DNA of 64,000 bases from Thermoanaerobaculia bacterium (GCA_044868005.1 JBIOVX010000013.1:2172-66171); one strand, 5' to 3'. Shown: positions 8,635 through 63,400, counted from the first letter of the stretch. Translations and numbers: made by a program. The notes: generated from the letters alone by a model not told the origin.

Positions 8635-9795
8635 ATGCCCCATGAGTTCCAGCCCGTCCGCCCCGGCGACCTGATCACCGCCCAGGCGTGGAGCGACCTG
8701 CTGCTCAAGATCGAGGAGATCGAGCAGCGCCTCGAAGCGCTCGGGAACGGCGGCGGCGGCACCCACCTCGCCATTACCGGGCGCATCCCCGCCAACGGCC
8801 CCTACCGCATCGGCGACACGATGGGCCTGCTCGGGGGCAACTTCCAATTCTCGCTCGGCGCGGCGCAGGTCTTCCTGAACGCCGTGCGCGCCCTCGACCT
8901 GACCGGCTCTACCGACACCCAGCTCGTCTTCGTCATCCCGCCGGTCCCGGGCGTCGTCGAGCCGGGCACCGAGGTGACCCTGCGCGTCCTCAACCAGACC
9001 GCGGAGGTGACGCAGCAGATCGCGCTGCGGCCGGCGCTGCAGGCGACCGGCGAGGTCGACGTCACCTGGATGAACGTCATCCCGGTCATCTTCGAGGAGG
9101 GGGCCCAGGTGACCTTCGCGTACCGCATCCTCTCGCGGGCCTCGGCGACGGCCGACTTCGCGATCGCCCCGTTCATCAACGTGGCCACCGGCCAGAGCAC
9201 CTGGCAGAGCCGCGTGCAGGTGCTGGACAACAGCCAGAACCCCATCCCGGGCCCGGTGATCCGTCTCGCTCCGCTCTCGCAGCGGCTGTTCAACGTCCGC
9301 ATCACGCAGATCCCCACCGGCACCCTCGGAACGCCCTTCACCTTGACCCTCAACGCCATCGCCGGCGCCATCCACGGCACCGCCGGCGCGCAGCCCTTCA
9401 CGGTCGGCGAGCAGGCCGAGAATCCGGACCTGACGATCGCCCTCAACCCGAGGCACGTCCCGGGCGGCGCCGCGCTCGAGGGCGACACGGTGTTTTTCAG
9501 CCCCCAGGGGGGAGGTGGTCCGCGGTTGCGTTTCGCCGCCGAGTTCGAGGTGGCCGGCATCTACGACCTGACCGTCACGGCGACCGCTGGCTGGACCGTG
9601 GTACGTGCTCCCGCCACGCCCGCCTTCTACGAGATCCTGCCGCAGGACGTCTCGGCCGGGCGGGCGGTGCGCGTCCTGGAGATCGACATCACCCCCGCCG
9701 GCAGTCTTGAAGGGCGCACCACAGTCCGCCTCCAGCGCCGCGGCGCCGCCAACGGCCGATCGTTCACTTTGAATCTCGTCAACGACGTCTCATAG
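8635..9795 (+). CDS. Fibre/receptor-binding-like protein, paralog A (short coiled coil + IPT/TIG-like beta domain)
   Basis: 386 aa. The N-terminus is LITAQAWSDLLLKIEEIEQRLEAL, followed by ITGRIPANGPYRIGDTMGLLGGNFQF...VFVIPPVPGVVEPGTEVTLRVLNQT (IPT-like). It is collinear over its full length with the next ORF. Confidence 0.75.
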   Translation: MPHEFQPVRPGDLITAQAWSDLLLKIEEIEQRLEALGNGGGGTHLAITGRIPANGPYRIGDTMGLLGGNFQFSLGAAQVFLNAVRALDLTGSTDTQLVFVIPPVPGVVEPGTEVTLRVLNQTAEVTQQIALRPALQATGEVDVTWMNVIPVIFEEGAQVTFAYRILSRASATADFAIAPFINVATGQSTWQSRVQVLDNSQNPIPGPVIRLAPLSQRLFNVRITQIPTGTLGTPFTLTLNAIAGAIHGTAGAQPFTVGEQAENPDLTIALNPRHVPGGAALEGDTVFFSPQGGGGPRLRFAAEFEVAGIYDLTVTATAGWTVVRAPATPAFYEILPQDVSAGRAVRVLEIDITPAGSLEGRTTVRLQRRGAANGRSFTLNLVNDVS

Positions 9796-9807
9796 AGGGA
9801 CACCACC

Positions 9808-10974
9808 ATGCCCCACCAACTTCAGCCCGTCCGCCCCGGCGACCTGATCACCGCCCAGACGTGGAACGACCTGCTGCTCAAGATCGAGGAGATCGAGGAG
9901 CGCCTCGACGAGCTCGAGGGGAACAGCGGCGGCACCGGCCTCGCCATCACCGGCCGCATCCCCGCCACCGGCCCCTACCGCATCGCCGACACGCTGGTCC
10001 TGCTCGGGGGCAACTTCCAGTTCTCGCTCGGCGCGACGCAGGTCTTCTTGAATGCCGTGCGTGTCCTCAACCTGACCGGCTCGACCGACACCCGGCTCAC
10101 CTTCGTCATCCCGCCGGTCCCCGGCGTCGTCGAGCCGGGCACCGAGGTGACCCTGCGCGTCCTCAACCAGACCGCGGAGGTGACGCAGCAGATCGTGCTG
10201 CGGCCGGCGCTGCCGGTGGTCTTCGGCGAGGTCGACGTCGTCTGGCTCAGCGCCAACCCGACCACCCCCCAGTCCGGGGACCCGGCGACCTTCGCGTATC
10301 GCATCACCTCGCGGGCCTCGGCGGCGGCGGACTTCGTGATCGCCCCGCTCGTCGGCGTGGCCGTCGGCCAGCCCCTCTGGCAGAGCCGCCTGCAGGTGCT
10401 GGACAGCAACCTGAGCCCCATTCCGGGTAACGCCATCCGTCTCAATCCGCTCGAGCAGCGGCAGTTCAACGTCCGCATCGCGCCGATCCCGGGCGACACC
10501 CAGGGAGTGGCCTTCACCTTGACCGTCAACGCCACCGCCGGCGCCGTGCACGGTACCTCCGGCGCGCAGCCCTTCACGGTCGGCCAGCCGGCCGAGACGC
10601 CGGACACGACGATCACCCTCAACCCGACGCAGTCGTTCCCGCAGGGCACCGAGCTCTCGGGCGACACGGTGTTCGTCTTCGTCGGGACGCAGGTGCGGGT
10701 ACGTTTCACCGCCGAGTTCGAGGTGTCCGGCATCTACGACTTGACCGTTACCACCCCACCCGAGGACGGCTGGGACGTAACGCGCTTCGCCCTGACCACG
10801 CCCGCGTTCTATGAACTCCCGGTCTCGCCCGGCCAGCCGGCGGTGCGCTTTCCCGAGATCAACATCGGCACCGGCGGCGGCAGCATGCAAAGCACCGCCA
10901 CGGTCCGCCTCCAACGCCGCGGTGCCGCCAACAGCCGGGCGTTCACCTTGAATCTCTTCAAAGACAATGGTTAA
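9808..10974 (+). CDS. Fibre/receptor-binding-like protein, paralog B
   Basis: 388 aa, starting 12 nt after paralog A. It has the same architecture and is offset by exactly 1173 nt from paralog A through the first ~135 codons. Confidence 0.75.
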   Translation: MPHQLQPVRPGDLITAQTWNDLLLKIEEIEERLDELEGNSGGTGLAITGRIPATGPYRIADTLVLLGGNFQFSLGATQVFLNAVRVLNLTGSTDTRLTFVIPPVPGVVEPGTEVTLRVLNQTAEVTQQIVLRPALPVVFGEVDVVWLSANPTTPQSGDPATFAYRITSRASAAADFVIAPLVGVAVGQPLWQSRLQVLDSNLSPIPGNAIRLNPLEQRQFNVRIAPIPGDTQGVAFTLTVNATAGAVHGTSGAQPFTVGQPAETPDTTITLNPTQSFPQGTELSGDTVFVFVGTQVRVRFTAEFEVSGIYDLTVTTPPEDGWDVTRFALTTPAFYELPVSPGQPAVRFPEINIGTGGGSMQSTATVRLQRRGAANSRAFTLNLFKDNG

Positions 10975-10989
10975 CCGAGGAGGGATGTC

Positions 10990-13275
10990 ATGAGAAACCT
11001 CCGGACCACGATCTTGCTGCTGGCGCTCGCCGCCGCGGCGCCAGCCCTGGCGCAGACCGACGTCTGCATCCCCGAGGCCTTCGGCGTGCCGGCGCTGTCC
11101 GGGCCGCCGAACTGGTGGGACTCAGGGCTTCCCGCGCCGCAGCACTGGCCCCGCCCCGACGACCCGCGCTGGCGCGGCGCCTTCGTCCACCTGCCGATGC
11201 CGGGCGCCGCCGCCACCGAGCACGTCACCTTCCGCGCCCTGCGCACCGCGACCGACCTCTACCTGCTCTGGCACGTCACCGTCGACCCGGTGCTCGACAG
11301 CAACGACCAGCTCTGGGTGGCCTTCAGCCCCAACACGCCCGGCGAGGAAGACATCCTGATCAACGTCGTGCCGTTCAACGCCGCGAACACCAACGTGCCG
11401 GCGGTCGCCGGCGATCCGCTGCCGCCGCCCTTCGGGGTCTCGGTGGCGACACGCATCCAGCCGGCCGCCTTCGCGGCGCCCCCGAGCCTGCCGCACTGGA
11501 TCGACCCCGGCAACGCGGCCAACCACACGCGGGTCTTCCGCAGCACCGCCAACAACAGTTGGGCGATCCTGATGGAGGTGCCCATCGACCCCGACTTCGA
11601 CGACGGCATCGGCCTGGCGAACGACTTCTCGATGTGGTTCGAGGTCCAGGTCAGTCACACCGTGCCGAACATGGTCCCGTACGCCTTCCCGGCCGCCCTC
11701 AGCTTCGACGAAGTGGCGGTATCGACCGACGACACCGGTTTTCAGGTCACCCGCCGCAACGTGGTGCCGCCGAACCCGGCGTGCCTCCTGGGCGTCTCGC
11801 TGGCCGTCGCCGACGTCGGCACGGTCGCGCCCGCCGCCGTCCCCTGCGATCCCACGGACACACTCTCGAGCAACATCGAGCTCAAGAACGCGGCCGGAAC
11901 GGCCCCGGGCAGCAACGTCCTCTGCGCCCGGCCGCTCAACCAGACCGGCGGCACCATCGGCAACGGCACCCTCGACGCCACCTTCCGCACCGCCAACTGG
12001 GGGACGCAGCCGGACTGGAACTCGGTCCCGGACCCGCTCAACACGCTCTGGAAGACGGTCAACACGACGGCGGTGACGGGAGCGCAGATCACCAACGGCA
12101 ACAAGGGCGCCTTGAGCTTCACCTGGAACCTGGTCGCCAACGGCAACGTCAACGACGTGAACAACGTCTGCACCTTCGATCCCCAGCCGACCGGCCTGGG
12201 TTGTGGGGCGGTACCGGCCGCCAATCGCCGCATGCGCCACCAGTGCATGCTCGTCGAGCTGAGCGGGGTGCCGGGGCTGAGCTTCTCGACCAGCAGCGTC
12301 TACCGCAACATGGACTTCGTCGGCGCCTCGACTTTCAAGCGCGAGGCCGAGGTGAGCGTCGTCGGCCTGGCGCCGCCGCCGACTCCCGAGCCCCAGCGCG
12401 AGGTCTTCCTCTACGTCCAGACCCACAACATGCCCGCGCGGGTGGCGGGCGGCGGGCAGGGTGACGAGCCGGGGCAGGAGCCGCCGCCACCACCGCCTCC
12501 TCCTCCGGATGACGCTCCCGGCGTCGCAGGCGCCGCCCGGCCGCCGCTGGGGGAGATCCCGCCGCTCGAGCAGAGCGAGTACGGGGCGCTGCGGGACGCC
12601 AATCCGACCTACGAGGTCCATGCCTTCCACGACACCGGACGCACGACCACGGTCCGCGGCACCACCTACCGCATCCTCGAGCCGCAGACCTCGTTCGGCT
12701 ACTTCGTCGAGCACCATGGAGAGCTGGAGGGCTGGCGGCACGAGCTGATCGGCGCGCAGCAGATCGCCCCCGACTACTACCGCATCCCGGTCCCCGAGCA
12801 GGGCACAGCGAGGGTCACCACAGTCATCGAGGCCATCGAGCCGCGCCGCTGGTCGCTCAGCCTCCACGCCGGCCGCAACGACCCACGGGGCGACATCGGC
12901 AAGGTCTGCAGCGGCGACCTCTCCTGGGGCGTGGACCTCGAGTACCGCTTCAACTCCACCTGGGCCGCCGAGCTGTTCTACGGCCACGAGGACTTCGACT
13001 GCGGTGGCTCCGACGACGAGGTCGAGCACCTCTCTCTCAACGGCAAGGCCTACTTCCTGTCAGGACCCTGGCGGCCCTTCGCCGGTGCCGGAGTAGGGAA
13101 TTACGACTTCTCTCCCGGCCCGAGCGAAACCGGCTTCAATCTGTTCGCCGGCTTGCAGGCCAACCCGCTGCCGCGGTTGGGGCTGGAGGCCACCGCCCGC
13201 TATCACTTCGTCGACGCGAGCGGTGTCGACGCCGACTTCCTCACCTATCACCTCGGTCTGCGGATCCGCTTCTGA
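10990..13275 (+). CDS. Secreted protein with C-terminal outer-membrane beta-barrel domain
   Basis: It has a Sec signal (MRNLRTTILLLALAAAAPALAQ) and 9 consecutive Pro codons (12481-12507). The last ~130 aa alternate hydrophobic and polar residues and end ...YHLGLRIRF, the terminal Phe typical of OM barrels. Confidence 0.75.
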   Translation: MRNLRTTILLLALAAAAPALAQTDVCIPEAFGVPALSGPPNWWDSGLPAPQHWPRPDDPRWRGAFVHLPMPGAAATEHVTFRALRTATDLYLLWHVTVDPVLDSNDQLWVAFSPNTPGEEDILINVVPFNAANTNVPAVAGDPLPPPFGVSVATRIQPAAFAAPPSLPHWIDPGNAANHTRVFRSTANNSWAILMEVPIDPDFDDGIGLANDFSMWFEVQVSHTVPNMVPYAFPAALSFDEVAVSTDDTGFQVTRRNVVPPNPACLLGVSLAVADVGTVAPAAVPCDPTDTLSSNIELKNAAGTAPGSNVLCARPLNQTGGTIGNGTLDATFRTANWGTQPDWNSVPDPLNTLWKTVNTTAVTGAQITNGNKGALSFTWNLVANGNVNDVNNVCTFDPQPTGLGCGAVPAANRRMRHQCMLVELSGVPGLSFSTSSVYRNMDFVGASTFKREAEVSVVGLAPPPTPEPQREVFLYVQTHNMPARVAGGGQGDEPGQEPPPPPPPPPDDAPGVAGAARPPLGEIPPLEQSEYGALRDANPTYEVHAFHDTGRTTTVRGTTYRILEPQTSFGYFVEHHGELEGWRHELIGAQQIAPDYYRIPVPEQGTARVTTVIEAIEPRRWSLSLHAGRNDPRGDIGKVCSGDLSWGVDLEYRFNSTWAAELFYGHEDFDCGGSDDEVEHLSLNGKAYFLSGPWRPFAGAGVGNYDFSPGPSETGFNLFAGLQANPLPRLGLEATARYHFVDASGVDADFLTYHLGLRIRF

Positions 13276-13299
13276 AGAGGGGAGGAGGAGAGGAGCGCC

Positions 13300-15366
13300 A
13301 TGCCAGCAACCGCCGCCATCGGCACCCTGCGCCTGACCGGCGCCGCCGCCGACACCCCGGCATTGCGGCTGCGGGCGGCGCGGGAGCTGGCCGGCGCGGA
13401 CCTCAGCCCGCCCGGTCTGCCGCCCGCCGCGGTGCTGGTGGTGCGGCGGCTGGCCGATCCGCTGCCGCGGCGACTGGCCGGGCGCGAGCCGCGGCTGCGG
13501 CCGGACGCGGCATGGGAACGGGCGGTGCGCGAGCGCCTCGCCGCCGCCCTCCGCTCCGCGGCCCGTCCCGACCCGCATGGCGTGGTGCCGGCGGAGGCTC
13601 CGGCGCTGGTCTTCGCCGACGAGGCGGAGCTCCTCGCCTGTGTGGTGCGGCAGCGGGTGCGCGGCGAGCTGGCGGCGCTCTGGTGGTGGCGCGCCGTGCG
13701 CAGGCGGCTGCCGCCGGCGGCGACGGCCGGCCTGGAGAATGGCCGCGACCCGTCGCCGTTCCTCGCCGCCTGTCCCCGCGAGGCGCCGGCGGCGCTCGCA
13801 TGGCTCGCTCGCTGGGGCGAGGCGGCGGCGGTGGCCGCGGCGTTCACACCCGCGTCCGCGAAGCGCGTTCTCGCCGCTCTCGCGGCGGAGCACGGGCTGC
13901 CGCCGGATCTCGTGGCGGCTTCCGGCGAGAAGGAGTCCGAGATGTCGGACCCTGGCGATCCGGACGTAGGGTCTGCTGCGCCCACCTCTACCGTTCCGCC
14001 CGAGCCGTGGCGCGATTGGCTGCCGTCCGAGTTTCTGGCCGTACCGCTCGCGCCGGAGGTCCGCTATCTCTTCGGCGTCGCCCTCGGGCTTGCGGCGGCA
14101 CCTCATCGGCTGCGTTCCGCCGACGTCATCGAGAAGGCGCGCCGTTCCTGGCTGCCGCTTTCGCCGTTTACCAGGCCGCCGTCCACCGGCAGCGGTGAGC
14201 CAGCTAACGGCTCCGGCGCGCCATCCACCGCCGGCGGTGGAACGTCTACCGCCGGGGGTGAAGCGTCTGCCGCCGGCGGCGAAACGTCTACCGCCGGCGG
14301 TGAAGCGTCTACCGCCGGCGGTGAAGCGTCTACCGCCGGGGGTGAAGCGTCTACCGCCGGCGGTGGAACGTCTACCGGAGGCGGTGAAACGTCTGCCGCC
14401 GGCGGTGGAACGCCCGCCGGGAGCGGTGGGCGGCGCGCCGGCAGCGGTGGACCAACGGCGGAGCGGGAGCGCCTGGCCCCCCGGCTTTGCGCAGGCGCGA
14501 CCGCCACGCTGGAGCCGCGCCCCGCGCCGGCAGTTTCCTCCGAAGTCACCCAGCGGAAGACGCCGGCATGGGGTGAGGAGGGCATCGCCACCCGAATCGG
14601 CGGCGTCCTCTACCTGATCCATGCCCTGCTCGACCTCGGGCTGCCGGAGGCCTTCGAGCCCGGCTGGCGGCTGGCGAGCGCCGCAGGGCCGTGGGGAACG
14701 CTCGACCTCCTCGGCCGCGGGCTCCTGGGGGCACGCTTCGCCGAGGTTGCCGGAGACCCGCTGTGGGTGGCGCTGGCCGAGCTGGCCGGCTGGCTGTCCG
14801 TCGATCGGAAAGGATCGCTCCGCACCGCCTACCGTGTTCCCGCCGACTGGCCGAAAAAGCTCGCGGATCCGTGCTACGGCTTCGCCTGGTCGGCGGCCGG
14901 GGGGCGGCTGCGCGTCTGGTCGGCGGCCGGCTACCTGATCGCCGACGTGCGCCGCGGGCCGGACAAGCCCTCGCGCCAGGCGCGGCGGGAGCTGGCGCGG
15001 CTTGCCGGCGTTCCAGACGATGCCCGCCTCATCCGCCGCCAGGCCGCCGCGGCGCCGCTCGTCCGCCTGCTGCCGCCGCTGCCGCCCGGCTGCCCGCCGC
15101 ACCTCGGACGCTGGCTCGCGGCGGCGCTGCCGGCCGTGCGGCGCCGGCTCCTCCTCGCCCTCGCCGGCCGCCGTGCGGCGCCGGGGCGGCGGGACCCGGT
15201 GGCGCGGGCGCTCGCCGTGCGCGGACGCCTCTACCTCACCTCGAGCCACGTCGACCTCGTGCTCCCCCTCGCCGCCGCCGAGCTCGCCGCGCGCCGCGCC
15301 GGCCTCGACCGCGATCCAGGGTGGCTGCCGGCCTTCGGCCGGGTCGTCTCGTTCCATTTCGCATAA
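13300..15366 (+). CDS. Hypothetical protein in the Afp14 (tape-measure) position, with internal GGEASTA heptad repeats
   Basis: 688-aa ORF immediately upstream of the AAA+ ATPase. The function is assigned by position only. It contains a 21-bp in-frame tandem array. Confidence 0.65.
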   Translation: MPATAAIGTLRLTGAAADTPALRLRAARELAGADLSPPGLPPAAVLVVRRLADPLPRRLAGREPRLRPDAAWERAVRERLAAALRSAARPDPHGVVPAEAPALVFADEAELLACVVRQRVRGELAALWWWRAVRRRLPPAATAGLENGRDPSPFLAACPREAPAALAWLARWGEAAAVAAAFTPASAKRVLAALAAEHGLPPDLVAASGEKESEMSDPGDPDVGSAAPTSTVPPEPWRDWLPSEFLAVPLAPEVRYLFGVALGLAAAPHRLRSADVIEKARRSWLPLSPFTRPPSTGSGEPANGSGAPSTAGGGTSTAGGEASAAGGETSTAGGEASTAGGEASTAGGEASTAGGGTSTGGGETSAAGGGTPAGSGGRRAGSGGPTAERERLAPRLCAGATATLEPRPAPAVSSEVTQRKTPAWGEEGIATRIGGVLYLIHALLDLGLPEAFEPGWRLASAAGPWGTLDLLGRGLLGARFAEVAGDPLWVALAELAGWLSVDRKGSLRTAYRVPADWPKKLADPCYGFAWSAAGGRLRVWSAAGYLIADVRRGPDKPSRQARRELARLAGVPDDARLIRRQAAAAPLVRLLPPLPPGCPPHLGRWLAAALPAVRRRLLLALAGRRAAPGRRDPVARALAVRGRLYLTSSHVDLVLPLAAAELAARRAGLDRDPGWLPAFGRVVSFHFA
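14233..14421 (+). repeat. 21-bp in-frame tandem repeat, about 9 units (GG[E/G][A/T]S[T/A]A)
   Basis: Units are ggcggtggaacgtctaccgcc (14233), gggggtgaagcgtctgccgcc (14254) and ggcggcgaaacgtctaccgcc (14275). Three near-identical ggcggtgaagcgtctaccgcc units follow at 14296, 14317 and 14338, then degenerate units run to 14421. Confidence 0.9.
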
Positions 15367-15391
15367 GGAGCGCACGTCGCGGAGCCCCGCC

Positions 15392-17554
15392 ATGAGCCAA
15401 CCCCTCGCCGCCGAACCCGAGCACGACACCTTCGCCGGAGTGCCGCCCACCGCCGGCGGTCATTTCGTGCTCTGTCTCTATGCCGCCATCTTCCGCCTCC
15501 TCCACCACGCGAAGCGCTTGAGCGAGGCGGACGGCACCACGCTGGAGGCCCTCTTCGAGCGCTACCCGTTCCTCGGCGAGTACTTCACCGAGGTGCGCGC
15601 CCATCTGCCCGAGGACCTCACCTGGAGCGAAGCCGCGGCCTGGTGGCGCGAGGAGCTGGCTGCCTGGGAGGCGGAGTGCGGCGAGCGCCTGCCGCTCGCC
15701 GATCTCGCGGCGCAGCCGGGAGTGGGAGAGGCGGGGCGGCTGGCCTTCATGATCGCCGGCCTCGTCGAGGAGGACTCGCGCTTCGGCACTCTCTTCGCCG
15801 AGCTGCAGGAGCCGCTGGCGCATCGCCGGCCGACGCTCGAGCTGGTCGGGCAGATGGCCGCCGGCGAGCCGGGGCAGAACGACTCCTGGGCGATCTGCCG
15901 GCCGCTCGTCGAGGCCGGCTTTCTCGCCGTCGCCGATCGCGAGGCGCCGCGCGCCGAATGGGTGCTCAAGGTGCCGCCGCTGCTCTGGGACGCCGCCCGC
16001 GGCGGCGCGGCTGGGAGCGCGCTCGTCCAATCCGGCCGGCCGGCGCCCTGGTGCCGCCTGACGCCGCCCGAGCAGCTCCCCGAGATCGCCCACCTGATGC
16101 AGCCGCCGGAGCTGCTGGCGCGCCTCGGCCGCCTGCCACAGCTCCTCGGCACCGGCCGCACGCGTACCCTGGTGCTGCGCGCCGCGCCGGGAGCCGAGCC
16201 GGAGGAGGTGTGCGGCGCGGTGGCGCGCGCCCTCGGCCGCGGCGCGGTCCTGGTGGACGGCGCCGCCTTTGCCGACGAGGGGCCGGCGCGCCTGCTCGCG
16301 CCGCTCGCCACCCTCACCCGCTCGCTGCCGGTCCTGAGCTACGACCTCGGACCCGGCGAGACGGCCGAGCCGCCGCCCCTCCCCGGCTACGCCGGACCGC
16401 TGGCGATCATCCTCGGTCTGGAGGGCGGCCTCGGCAGCCGCGCCGCGGAGAGCGCGGTCACCCTCGTCCTGCCGCAGCCGCGCGCCGAGCTGCGCGAGCG
16501 CTCCTGGCGGCTCGCCCTCGGCAGCCGTCCGGCCGAGGACCTGCCGGCGATCGCCGAGCGCTTCCAGCTCGCCGGCGGCTTCATCCGCCGGGCGGCGGAG
16601 ATCGCCGCCGCCCATGCCGCCCTCGACGGCCGCGAGGCGGTGGCCCTGCCCGACGTCCAGGAGGCGGCGCGCGCGCTCAACCGCCAGCTTCTCGACACCC
16701 TCGCCGACCGTCTGGAAGCCGCCGGCGAGTGGAGCGACCTGGTGTGCGGCGAATCGACACACGCCAAGCTCGCGGAGCTGGAGAGCCGCTGCCGTCACCG
16801 CGAGCGTCTCCTCGACCACGTCGGCCGCGGTTTCCGCGCCAGCGGCAACCGCGGCGTGCGCGCTCTGTTCACCGGCACGAGCGGCACGGGAAAAACCCTC
16901 GCCGCGCGCATCCTCGCCGCCGAGCTCGGCCTCGACGTCTACCGGGTCGACCTCGCGGCGGTCATCAACAAGTACATCGGCGAAACCGAGAAGAACCTCC
17001 ACCGCGTGCTGTCGCGCGCCGAAGCGCTCGACGTCGTGCTGCTGCTCGACGAAGGGGACGCCCTGCTCGGCAACCGCACCGAGGTGCGCTCGGCCAACGA
17101 CCGTTACGCCAACCTCGAGACCAACTACCTCCTGCAGCGCCTGGAGACCTATCAGGGGATCGTGGTGGTGACGACCAACCTGGGCGAGAACGTCGATGCC
17201 GCCTTCCAGCGCCGCATGGACGTGGTCGTGCCCTTCTTCCCGCCGCAGGCCGAGGAGCGCTGGCGCATCCTCGACCTCCACCTGCCGGCGGATCACGAGG
17301 TCTCGCTGGCGTCCCTCGAGCGGCTGGCGGTGGCCTGCGCCCTGACCGGCGGCCAGCTCAGGAACGCCGCCCTCCACGCCACCCTCCTGGCGCTGGAGGA
17401 GGGTGGCGGGCCGGTGGCCTCCGCTCACCTCGAGAACGCGGTGCGTAGCGAGTACCGCAAGACCGGCGCCGCCTACCCGCTCAGCGAAGGCCGGCGGCCG
17501 GCGCACGGCGGGGTCGAGGCCTTCATCGCCGCCCTCGGAGGGAGCGCGGGGTAA
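15392..17554 (+). CDS. eCIS-type AAA+ ATPase (Afp15-like)
   Basis: Start chosen at ATG 15392 (MSQPLAAEPEHD), 25 nt after the previous stop; the listed ORF start at 15002 overlaps the upstream gene. Walker A is GTSGTGKTL and Walker B is VVLLLDEGDAL. NKYIGETEKNL and VVVTTNLGENVDAAFQRRMD are typical of the single-AAA eCIS ATPases. Confidence 0.85.
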   Translation: MSQPLAAEPEHDTFAGVPPTAGGHFVLCLYAAIFRLLHHAKRLSEADGTTLEALFERYPFLGEYFTEVRAHLPEDLTWSEAAAWWREELAAWEAECGERLPLADLAAQPGVGEAGRLAFMIAGLVEEDSRFGTLFAELQEPLAHRRPTLELVGQMAAGEPGQNDSWAICRPLVEAGFLAVADREAPRAEWVLKVPPLLWDAARGGAAGSALVQSGRPAPWCRLTPPEQLPEIAHLMQPPELLARLGRLPQLLGTGRTRTLVLRAAPGAEPEEVCGAVARALGRGAVLVDGAAFADEGPARLLAPLATLTRSLPVLSYDLGPGETAEPPPLPGYAGPLAIILGLEGGLGSRAAESAVTLVLPQPRAELRERSWRLALGSRPAEDLPAIAERFQLAGGFIRRAAEIAAAHAALDGREAVALPDVQEAARALNRQLLDTLADRLEAAGEWSDLVCGESTHAKLAELESRCRHRERLLDHVGRGFRASGNRGVRALFTGTSGTGKTLAARILAAELGLDVYRVDLAAVINKYIGETEKNLHRVLSRAEALDVVLLLDEGDALLGNRTEVRSANDRYANLETNYLLQRLETYQGIVVVTTNLGENVDAAFQRRMDVVVPFFPPQAEERWRILDLHLPADHEVSLASLERLAVACALTGGQLRNAALHATLLALEEGGGPVASAHLENAVRSEYRKTGAAYPLSEGRRPAHGGVEAFIAALGGSAG

Positions 17555-17559
17555 GCCCC

Positions 17560-59942: not shown

Positions 59943-62699
<2,757 letters not shown>

Positions 62700-62806
62700 G
62701 GGATTCGTTCTCCCTAGTGGACGGCACGAACGGCGGGCGCCGCGCCTGCAACGATAACACGCCGGAATTCTCCCGGAGGCGGGCTCACCCGGAGTAAGAT
62801 CCCCCC

Positions 62807-63400
62807 ATGGCGGTTGCCGGCTCCGATCTCTCCACACCGGTCCTGTTGTTGGCCATGCCCCAGGTGCTCGATCCATCGTTCCACCGCAGCGTCGTGCTGC
62901 TCCTCCATCACGAGGAAGCCGGGAGCTTCGGCTTCATCGTCAACCGGCCGACGGACATCAAGATCCGCGAGATCCTCAAGGGGATGGACATCGGCTGGCG
63001 GGGAGAGGAGAAGGCCGTGGCCTACATGGGCGGGCCGGTGCAGCAGAACCTCGGCACCGTGCTCTTCACTCCCGTCCTCCTCGACGGCGACGAGGACGAC
63101 AGTGCTACCGAGATCGCGCCCGGCATCGCCCTGACGCAGCATATCGGCGACCTCTCCCGGCTGGCGGAGGCGCCGCCGGACCACTTTCGCCTGCTCCTCG
63201 GCTACGCCGGTTGGGGCGAAGGGCAGCTCCTGGAGGAGATCCTCCGCAACGACTGGCTGACGGCGCCGGTCTCCGACGAGCTGATCTTCGCTCCCGATCC
63301 CGAGCAGGTCTGGGACGCCGCGCTGCGCTCCGTGGGCATCGACCCGGCGGCTCTGCCGTCGTGGATGCCCGGCGGCTCCTCCGGAGAGTCGGCGAACTGA
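62807..63400 (+). CDS. YqgE/AlgH family protein (UPF0301)
   Basis: [36 protein letters not shown]...GGPVQ...[12 protein letters not shown] is the YqgE pattern. Confidence 0.85.

Follow-up and report, generated by a model that had tools for sequence, protein, structure and literature searches.

The usual view of extracellular contractile injection systems (eCISs) is that of machines that are assembled in the cytoplasm, released by lysis, and active extracellularly. The contractile machine in a type VI secretion system (T6SS) has an envelope-resident partner, the TssJ-TssL-TssM complex, which spans both membranes and binds the baseplate, and in which the small lipoprotein TssJ is the outer-membrane (OM)-attached periplasmic component. 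Here we analyze a gene of an eCIS locus, called gene X, that lies in a 64,000-nucleotide stretch of DNA from Thermoanaerobaculia bacterium (GCA_044868005.1 JBIOVX010000013.1:2172-66171), hereafter the window. Its 761-residue product probably belongs to the locus as a true accessory, tethered to a membrane, and its C-terminal beta-barrel would serve only as an anchor.

The closest described counterparts are CisA of Streptomyces coelicolor and the thylakoid-anchored contractile injection system (CIS) of Anabaena. CisA (SCO4242) is a non-structural membrane protein that is encoded beside the baseplate and fibre genes and shares the conservation of the cluster. Although absent from the purified particle, it is needed for firing, and it consists of a disordered cytoplasmic N-terminus, one transmembrane (TM) helix, and an outer domain resembling substrate-binding proteins (PMC12237407). 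Compared by described architecture, X is built differently, with a cleavable signal followed by a beta-sandwich head and then by a barrel, and the CisA lineage is of type IId and has no fibres, whereas the X loci keep three to four fibre-like genes. Because of the difference in architecture, X was rejected as a CisA-type adaptor. In Anabaena, a Cis13 with a TM helix and an extension of Cis12 anchor the machine, which stays on ghost cells after lysis (PMC8894136). The likeness to X is that a CIS of the extracellular clade is tied to the producer membrane by products of the fibre slot; the Anabaena anchor, however, resides within a fibre protein on the cytoplasmic side, whereas X is separate and predicted to be exported and OM-anchored. 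With the T6SS envelope complex we found no sequence or fold relationship, and the span of both membranes and the binding of the baseplate are T6SS features. The eCIS reviews and surveys searched make no mention of an OM component or one bearing a signal peptide.

Gene X is predicted to encode an exported protein with a C-terminal OM barrel

The reading frame of gene X (10990-13275) is free of internal stops. At the N-terminus of the product, MRNLRTTILLLALAAAAPALA/QT, a basic n-region is followed by a hydrophobic h-region and an AxA site, and there is no lipobox. These features predict export via Sec, and no comparable hydrophobic N-terminal segment was seen on reading the sequences of the neighbouring eCIS proteins. 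An earlier note on this DNA had described X as a 761-residue product with a Sec signal and a large N-terminal soluble region, and the translation, the signal features, and a structural model of the head bear this out. Its gaps of 15 nt and 24 nt (the latter at 13276-13299), which separate X from the fibre-like genes and from the gene in the tape-measure position, were also confirmed. The G+C content of X is like that of the neighbouring genes, and neither a sigma-70-like promoter nor a terminator-like site on the + strand was found within positions 7000-18000. X is tightly spaced with the fibre genes and appears to be co-transcribed with them.

The C-terminal domain is matched by the Pfam family OMP_b-brl (PF13505) at residues 617-761 (E=2.1e-8, 35 bits against a cut-off of 28.7 bits), as are 21 of 46 members of the X family. 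In the full-length AlphaFold2 (AF2) model, which has a mean predicted local distance difference test score (pLDDT) of 85.7, this region folds into eight strands (621-632, 641-653, 658-670, 675-688, 694-708, 712-724, 730-743, and 750-760) with pLDDT >90, and the loops between them are all short, at 3-8 residues. What the earlier note had read as about 130 residues of amphipathic strands ending in RIRF is therefore an 8-stranded barrel of about 141 residues, slightly longer than claimed. A barrel is predicted by AlphaFold, which the note had named as a check, so the objection that X might have none falls away.

Structural comparison with Foldseek gave NspA (1p4t) as the best match of the barrel (E=4.6e-7, TM-target 0.78), and the OmpA TM domain, Ail, OmpX, and OmpW were all matched at probability 1.00. 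A profile search of X against the PDB returned Opa60, Ail, and OmpX, via the barrel only. The C-terminal domain is a member of the small 8-stranded outer-membrane protein (OMP) family, and every feature that could be checked was found: it shares with OmpX/Ail/Lom, NspA, OmpA, and OmpW the Pfam match, the eight strands, the superposition, and the terminal aromatic residue. Those proteins, however, consist of the barrel only or carry a C-terminal periplasmic domain (OmpA), whereas X has a 600-residue head before its barrel, and, unlike theirs, the X barrel has minimal loops and is exchanged for other anchors in close relatives. In the model, the minimal loops fit a barrel that is purely an anchor. 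An Ail/Lom-type 8-stranded OM protein is also encoded by phage lambda, where the lom gene lies in the tail-fibre region between J and stf. Lom, however, is a moron that consists of the barrel only and is expressed on its own in lysogens, whereas X is a 761-residue fusion with a conserved head, no promoter signal, and synteny across phyla.

The head of X most likely lies in the periplasm

The genome holds five matches to the Omp85/BamA family, and the host is therefore a diderm able to insert such a barrel. In 8-stranded barrels of the OmpA/OmpX type, both termini are on the periplasmic side. With eight strands, a C-terminal Phe, and both ends periplasmic, the head of X would most likely sit under the OM rather than be displayed on the surface.

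This topology bears on a very improbable alternative, in which the head is exposed on the cell surface and holds released particles there or masks a receptor. An N-terminal passenger followed by a C-terminal barrel superficially resembles an autotransporter, and relatives of X with tags like MYXO-CTERM could be surface-exposed, as MYXO-CTERM proteins are surface-localized. The barrel, however, has 8 strands rather than 12, no helical linker through its pore, and loops of only 3-8 residues; the standard 8-strand topology places the N-terminus in the periplasm; and the relatives that lack a signal peptide (see below) cannot be surface proteins. A type V autotransporter was rejected on the same strand count, on the lack of a linker through the pore, and because domain 3 of the head runs straight into strand 1: its strand at residues 606-616 joins barrel strand 1 (621-632) in the AF2 model with no helix between, and the beta-domain of BrkA was matched by Foldseek at a TM-target of 0.31 only. 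The first role offered by the earlier note, anchoring or display of the particle at the OM, is thereby narrowed, in that a partner in the envelope is retained as an idea and display at the surface is weakened by the periplasmic placement of the head. A similar division applies to its suggestion of a decoy or receptor-masking protein, for which masking at the surface is weakened by the barrel topology and protection of the producer is kept as an option (discussed below).

The head is a conserved unit of three beta-sandwich domains

Since fold searches with the full-length model were dominated by the barrel, a model of the head only was made. Residues 22-618 are modelled by AF2 as three packed beta-sandwich domains that form one rigid unit (pLDDT 90.7; predicted template modelling score, pTM, 0.89). 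Domains 2 and 3 are separated by a disordered and poorly conserved linker, with pLDDT <50 at residues 488-494 and 511-528, and some homologues carry extra domains inserted at this point. The run of nine prolines that the earlier note had seen is real (residues 498-506, nt 12481-12507); it falls inside this linker, and thus within the head rather than at the junction of head and barrel.

Conservation in the head is concentrated in a few motifs. Domain 2 contains FR.ANWG, HQC(M)LVEL, and SVYRNMDF as invariant motifs, and the columns that are invariant across phyla are ANWG (335-338), H417, C419, N440, and M441, with Q418 and R439 nearly invariant. Domain 3 has a conserved block, G570/Y571 ... 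H575 ... G581/W582. These patterns point to a conserved molecular function of the head. A sortase-like or L,D-transpeptidase-like reading of the His-x-Cys...Arg-Asn motif was rejected because it has no fold support.

In Foldseek searches, domain 1 of the head matched BACUNI_03838 (4jpq; putative carbohydrate-binding) at probability 1.00 and TM-target 0.58, and 2ivf_C, the gamma subunit of ethylbenzene dehydrogenase, which is DOMON-like, at probability 0.99 and TM-target 0.45. Both matches have 10-12% identity and cover approximately 220-260 of the 597 head residues. The likeness to these CBM9/DOMON-like sandwiches is one of fold without a match to a family profile, as the Pfam families CBM9, DOMON, and EB_dh matched none of the 46 X-family members. 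The remaining matches in the PDB and BFVD were generic (antibodies, MG domains of complement and alpha-2-macroglobulin, and arrestins; TM <=0.16), and no phage tail-fibre or baseplate fold was matched in either database. Likewise, no Pfam or NCBIfam model for the head was found with X and the 46 members, and no enzyme family or lytic fold was found in Pfam, the PDB, or BFVD. The model suggests a binding-type, non-enzymatic fold.

X occupies the same slot in eCIS loci of many phyla

A protein search with X returned 72 relatives at 27-71% identity. Five relatives were placed on contigs (P0005, P0012, P0034, P0040, and P0020), and all five have the same gene order: gp25, an approximately 750-aa protein, the Tail_P2_I protein, two or three fibre-like genes, X, an approximately 700-aa protein, the AAA ATPase, and an eCIS_core effector or other large protein. 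The same-slot loci L001, L002, L003, L074, and L076, with X identities of 58%, 46%, 39%, and 35-38%, come from metagenomes, a metagenome-assembled genome (MAG) of an Acidobacteriota, and Lysobacter. By tblastn, homologous fibre-like genes, whose products carry a TIG/IPT domain, precede X in related loci, and homologues of the AAA ATPase lie downstream of it. Most related loci have one TIG-domain gene before X, versus two in the window.

We collected 70 loci from species-representative genomes, or 73 loci with three further contigs. The 70 span Pseudomonadota, Myxococcota, Acidobacteriota, Gemmatimonadota, Actinomycetota, Chloroflexota, Verrucomicrobiota, Bacillota, and others, and in 36-39 of the 73 the Cis12 and fibre-like genes of the window are recognizable just upstream of X. 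In a profile search of 1.84 billion representatives, the family defined by the X head comprises 909 clusters at 50% identity (E<=1e-30).

To avoid circularity, the fibre-dock gene g456 (alignment A3), which has relatives in 255 species, was chosen as an independent marker of the lineage. The g456 sample consists of 59 loci with at least 5 kb of downstream sequence, in which the content of the slot was read by anchoring on the AAA gene. X is present in the slot in 32 of these 59 loci. Between pairs of loci, the identity of X rises with that of g456 (r=0.36; 0 of 999 Mantel permutations as high), and the two diverge at a similar rate. Because homologues occupy the same slot in orthologous eCIS loci, X is not an unrelated insertion; judged from these sequences, it is a long-standing member of an eCIS lineage in at least eight phyla. 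The survey of eCIS loci suggested in the earlier note thus removes the objection that X might be a chance arrival. In one g456 homologue, from an Actinomycetota MAG (L012:7467-8741), an in-frame stop was observed that may reflect a pseudogene or an assembly error.

Loci that lack X often encode another exported protein in its place

In ten of the 27 X-less loci in the g456 sample, the slot is filled by another large protein, also exported via Sec. Five of these alternative slot proteins have a barrel (L106, L113, L118, L120, and L144), and the barrels end in ...RFRF; one has a TM helix and a basic tail (L107), one has a MYXO-CTERM-like tail (L141), and three have no obvious anchor (L140, L143, and L148). 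The three proteins scanned for head domains gave weak, sub-threshold matches, to VWA (L120), to VWA and MG2 (L141), and to MG2 (L148). Comparison with hhalign relates the L120 protein to X via the barrel and not via the head; the alignment reaches into the last part of domain 3, with 6% identity over its full length. It finds no relation of the L141 or L148 slot proteins to X. The L144 barrel is near-identical to that of the X protein in L024.

Overall, 42 of the 59 loci (71%) hold a large exported or membrane-tethered protein in the slot, and in about 16 loci a fibre-like gene is followed directly by the approximately 700-aa gene. The presence of exported, anchored proteins in X-less slots suggests a recurrent need for an envelope protein at this position. 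It also appears that the head in the slot is exchangeable, and not only the anchor.

Some X genes lie elsewhere. In the Gemmatimonadota loci L006, L009, and L011, a barrel-type X follows genes for a trypsin-like peptidase and an RCC1-repeat protein and is not in the fibre slot; in one of them (L009:7054-21881, from a Gemmatimonadetes MAG), X is 1.6 kb upstream of a gene for a 940-aa sheath, which is followed by a CIS tube and a GPD-like hub. In a Myxococcota clade (L021-L031, L034, L039, L046, L059, and L063), whose X-head paralogues have MYXO-CTERM-like tails, no CIS gene was found within 10 kb of X, and the neighbours are Ser/Thr protein kinases, Cys-rich EGF-like secreted proteins, and an approximately 350-aa secreted protein. 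Four genomes of this clade were checked (L021, L028, L034, and L046). Two have no sheath match, a third has sheath matches megabases away from the X coordinates, apparently on another contig, and the fourth has sheath matches as well. Masked flanks were considered as the cause of the missing eCIS neighbours in Gemmatimonadota and Polyangia and were rejected, as there is no masking and the contexts differ.

These observations bear on whether X belongs to the machine at all. A distinctly unlikely alternative is that the stretch where the fibre genes meet the 700-aa gene is variable and picks up envelope proteins, such as adhesins or ligand binders, that are useful to the host and unrelated to machine function; X would then be comparable to Lom of phage lambda. 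The slot indeed varies, holding X, a VWA/MG2 protein, or nothing; paralogues outside CIS loci sit among kinases and Cys-rich secreted proteins in Myxococcota; the Gemmatimonadota X genes are found beside trypsin-like and RCC1 genes; and at r=0.36 the co-divergence with the locus is only moderate. A passenger is difficult to reconcile, however, with a slot that is kept across at least eight phyla with tight gaps and without promoter-like or terminator-like sites, with a G+C content like that of the neighbours, and with the occurrence of an exported or membrane-tethered large protein in 42 of 59 loci. Moreover, the cytoplasmic forms of X described next cannot be envelope adhesins.

Anchors are interchangeable and the head appears to occur in two compartments

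The ends of approximately 190 X-family members were inspected for signal and anchor type. Members with a signal peptide end in an 8-stranded barrel, in a hydrophobic helix followed by RRK-type residues (Lysobacter, Solimonas, and Verticiella), in a Cys-rich MYXO-CTERM-like tag (Myxococcota), or in a short Cys-rich tail. Hydrophobic N-termini are common to all barrel-bearing homologues, and after hand correction of five assignments a signal peptide accompanies all 34 barrels. Lipoprotein-type signals (...LLAGC..., ...SSSGC...) occur in the divergent members L073 (Chloroflexia), L103, L104, L117, and L119, in which an N-terminal lipid is a predicted further type of anchor. As read from these ends, and from those of the no-signal members described next, the family is always attached to a membrane.

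Approximately one-third of the family has no signal peptide. These proteins start with M-P-T-C-I-P at the conserved core and end either in a GC motif and a cationic amphipathic helix (e.g., GCLYALLKLFGFK) or in a tail-anchor helix after basic residues. The G-C dipeptide stands right before the amphipathic C-terminal helix (GCLYALLKLFGFK, GGCGRWLNMAIDALRRLLKL) in L015, L016, L033, L038, and L065 and in P0053 and P0056, and Cys is found in the sorting-tag tails of exported forms as well. All Actinomycetota and Bacillota members examined, and most from Chloroflexota, are of the no-signal class, which also occurs in diderms (Pyrinomonadaceae, Verrucomicrobiota, Longimicrobium, and a Methylococcaceae MAG); both classes are present within a single family, Pyrinomonadaceae. 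The no-signal members look cytoplasmic.

A tree built from 119 cores requires 5 switches of the signal state and 11 of the barrel/non-barrel state, the barrel having been exchanged for other anchors at least 9-11 times, and barrel and TM forms are close sisters on it. Cysteines follow the same division. Of the exported cores, 36 of 79 contain C394/C405, versus 0 of 40 no-signal cores, and C26 and C265 are always lost together, their loss being confined to no-signal forms, a distribution that supports two compartments for the head; C419 is invariant in the family cores. By these comparisons the barrel is one of several swappable anchors and the least conserved part of X. The three roles in the earlier note were all built on an OM barrel, and the barrel is real; it is, however, swapped often, and roughly one family member in three does without a signal altogether.

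Constant attachment to a membrane is also what would be expected if X weakened the membranes or wall of the producer from its tethered side and so let particles escape. This second role from the earlier note, a release factor, gained no positive support and is improbable. The cationic amphipathic C-terminal helices of the no-signal forms do resemble membrane-active peptides when their sequences are read, and no lysis cassette was seen in the examined part of the locus, only part of the genome having been searched for lysis genes. Against this, X has no lytic, lipase, muramidase, holin, or spanin-like feature, its head is rigid and all-beta with carbohydrate-binding/DOMON-like matches only, the VWA/MG2 heads of the alternative slot proteins are not lytic, and 17 of 59 loci have no slot protein of any kind. 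Readings of X as a holin, endolysin, or spanin were rejected for want of a Pfam or NCBIfam match, for the all-beta head, and for the lack of a spanin-like coiled coil.

In a rather unlikely alternative, X protects its producer. The tethered head would intercept the business end of sibling particles (the spike, the tube tip, or a conserved part of the effector) under the OM when carried by a barrel, at the outer face of the inner membrane when carried by a TM helix, and at the inner face when carried by an amphipathic helix. This would explain how the compartment could switch five times without loss of conservation in the head. Alpha-2-macroglobulins of the periplasm have a protective role, and alternative slot proteins give weak matches to MG2 (alpha-2-macroglobulin-type) and VWA domains. 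The CIS-less orphan copies in Myxococcota are of a kind common for immunity genes, and co-expression with the particle genes, as suggested by the 15-nt gap and the lack of a promoter-like site, fits as well. However, loci with barrel-type or TM-type X carry nuclease effectors (AHH in L074 and Endonuclea_NS_2 in L003), such that the compartment of X mismatches the target of the toxin, and X is large, conserved, and not adjacent to a toxin, unlike typical immunity proteins. The simple version, in which immunity is matched to the compartment of the toxin, was rejected because of these nuclease-type effectors.

The eCIS locus around gene X

Coordinates of gene X, its parts, and its neighbours are collected in Table 1. 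The contractile-system context given in the earlier note is confirmed by the CIS12, CIS13-type, AAA, and DUF4157 neighbours. The contig, which begins 2171 nt before the window, carries a gp25 gene in this short upstream part. The locus is split by the assembly, and the sheath genes are on contigs C289 and C111. X itself matched none of the NCBIfam CIS models or Pfam phage-tail models, which did match its Cis12 and Cis13-type neighbours, and it is not a component of the canonical eCIS gene set (Afp/PVC Cis1-Cis16).

Table 1. Positions in the window of gene X, its predicted parts, and neighbouring genes, and positions of alternative slot proteins (810-1031 aa) in their own loci
Feature	Position	Strand	Details
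CIS12/Tail_P2_I protein	3-4652		
First fibre-like protein	4665-7223		852 aa; CIS13-type N-terminus
Fibre-dock gene g456	7237-8607	+	CIS13-like N-terminus (NCBIfam CIS13_fam match)
Two paralogous fibre-like genes	8635-10974	+	386 and 388 aa; directly upstream of X; no signal peptide
Gap upstream of X	10975-10989	+	15 nt; Shine-Dalgarno-like GAGGAGG, 7 nt ahead of ATG
Gene X	10990-13275	+	761 aa; stop codon included; predicted exported, OM-anchored eCIS-locus accessory; from reading frame, translation, and same-slot homologues
Predicted Sec-type signal peptide	10990-11052	+	aa 1-21, MRNLRTTILLLALAAAAPALA; predicted cut before QTDVC
Head domains 1-2	11053-12444	+	aa 22-485; domain 1 CBM9/DOMON-like beta-sandwich, domain 2 beta-sandwich (modelled)
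Linker	12445-12573	+	aa 486-528; disordered, poorly conserved; between domains 2 and 3
Head domain 3	12574-12843	+	aa 529-618; beta-sandwich (modelled); motif PTY.VHA.HDTG...PQ.SFGYFV.H.G.L.GW; abuts barrel
C-terminal 8-stranded OM beta-barrel anchor	12844-13272	+	aa 619-761; predicted; ends in beta-signal-like LGLRIRF
Lineage-specific gene in tape-measure position	13300-15366	+	688 aa; no Pfam/NCBIfam match
AAA+ ATPase, Cis15 position	15392-17554	+	Pfam AAA E=3e-22; start codon inferred
eCIS_core (DUF4157) protein	17560-23415		1951 aa
Alternative slot protein	L120:12252-15194		
Alternative slot protein	L141:12330-14825		
Alternative slot protein	L106:12323-15418		
Alternative slot protein	L113:12606-15200		
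Alternative slot protein	L118:12486-15266		
Alternative slot protein	L144:12114-14924		
Alternative slot protein	L107:12115-14637		
Alternative slot protein	L148:12332-14764		

Several neighbours have features of their own. The 852-aa fibre-like protein ends in a ComEA-like helix-hairpin-helix domain (HHH_3) of a DNA-binding type, which is unusual on a CIS13-like protein; the same end is present in the L002 homologue and, by its sequence tail, in L091. The paralogous fibre-like proteins encoded directly before X (8635-9795 and 9808-10974) have near-identical N-termini, MPHEFQPVRPGDLITAQAW... and MPHQLQPVRPGDLITAQTW.... The 688-aa protein downstream of X contains a low-complexity repeat rich in Gly, Ser, Thr, and Ala, of the GGEASTAGG type. 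Its C-terminal motif, AGLDRDPGW.PA.GR.V.FHF, is kept in almost every related locus, whether X is present or absent, and the gene with the AGLDRDPGW motif always directly precedes the AAA ATPase, as might be expected of a core gene specific to this lineage. Farther away in the window, an aconitase gene (AcnA, 59943-62876, - strand) encodes a protein that is 81% identical to its homologue in a Thermoanaerobaculia MAG, which makes a host from the Acidobacteriota, class Thermoanaerobaculia, probable.

A tentative role as an envelope partner of the machine

The reading that we tentatively prefer is that X may be a partner of the machine on the envelope side, serving to dock or retain it. BAM, the machinery that assembles OM barrels, would insert the barrel into the OM, from which the head would hang in the periplasm. 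The head may then bind a part of the machine (the fibres, the periphery of the baseplate, or the spike) or a ligand in the envelope, and X could dock or retain particles at the envelope of the producer, or at its remnants, once the inner membrane has been breached. Retention of this kind would resemble the thylakoid-anchored CIS staying on ghost cells. In the no-signal relatives, the head may be held at the cytoplasmic face of a membrane by the amphipathic or tail-anchor helix, where it could dock the assembled machine directly, as CisA or the TM-bearing Cis13 do. Docking by X draws on the precedent of these two membrane adaptors, both from the CIS fibre slot (PMC12237407; PMC8894136).

Several observations weigh against a docking partner. 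A periplasmic head cannot reach a particle assembled in the cytoplasm before the inner membrane is breached, so that for exported forms docking would have to follow lysis. The use of the same head on both sides of a membrane is awkward for any single partner, and implies that the partner must be the membrane itself or something that traverses compartments. No slot protein of this kind is present in 17 of 59 loci of the lineage, and it is therefore not essential for building the machine. The Myxococcota clade of X, which is basal under midpoint rooting, is not linked to a CIS, and the head can therefore work without one. Finally, a catalytic or metal-binding site that went unrecognized in the fold searches could lie behind the invariance of the His-x-Cys and Arg-Asn-Met motifs.

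One candidate for something that traverses compartments is the needle. In this doubtful proposal, the head recognizes the needle or its load, and X would be an obligatory envelope partner, acting either as a trans-envelope station for firing or gating or in self-immunity by interception of the needle. Neither principle is known to have been described for eCISs.

Significance

CisA and the thylakoid-anchored CIS show that some relatives of the eCISs depend on membrane partners, and X adds a large, unnamed family to them. X seems to be a CIS-associated membrane partner from an undescribed protein family, in which case a supposedly free-floating machine has a partner in the envelope of its producer. 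The family is also a natural example of one domain that is re-targeted across a membrane while cysteine pairs are gained and lost to match, and it includes the culturable Lysobacter, Solimonas, Minicystis, Rhodococcus, and Humibacillus. If X docks, gates, or blocks the machine, this would bear on the positioning and release of particles, on the safety of the producer, and on the engineering of these systems.

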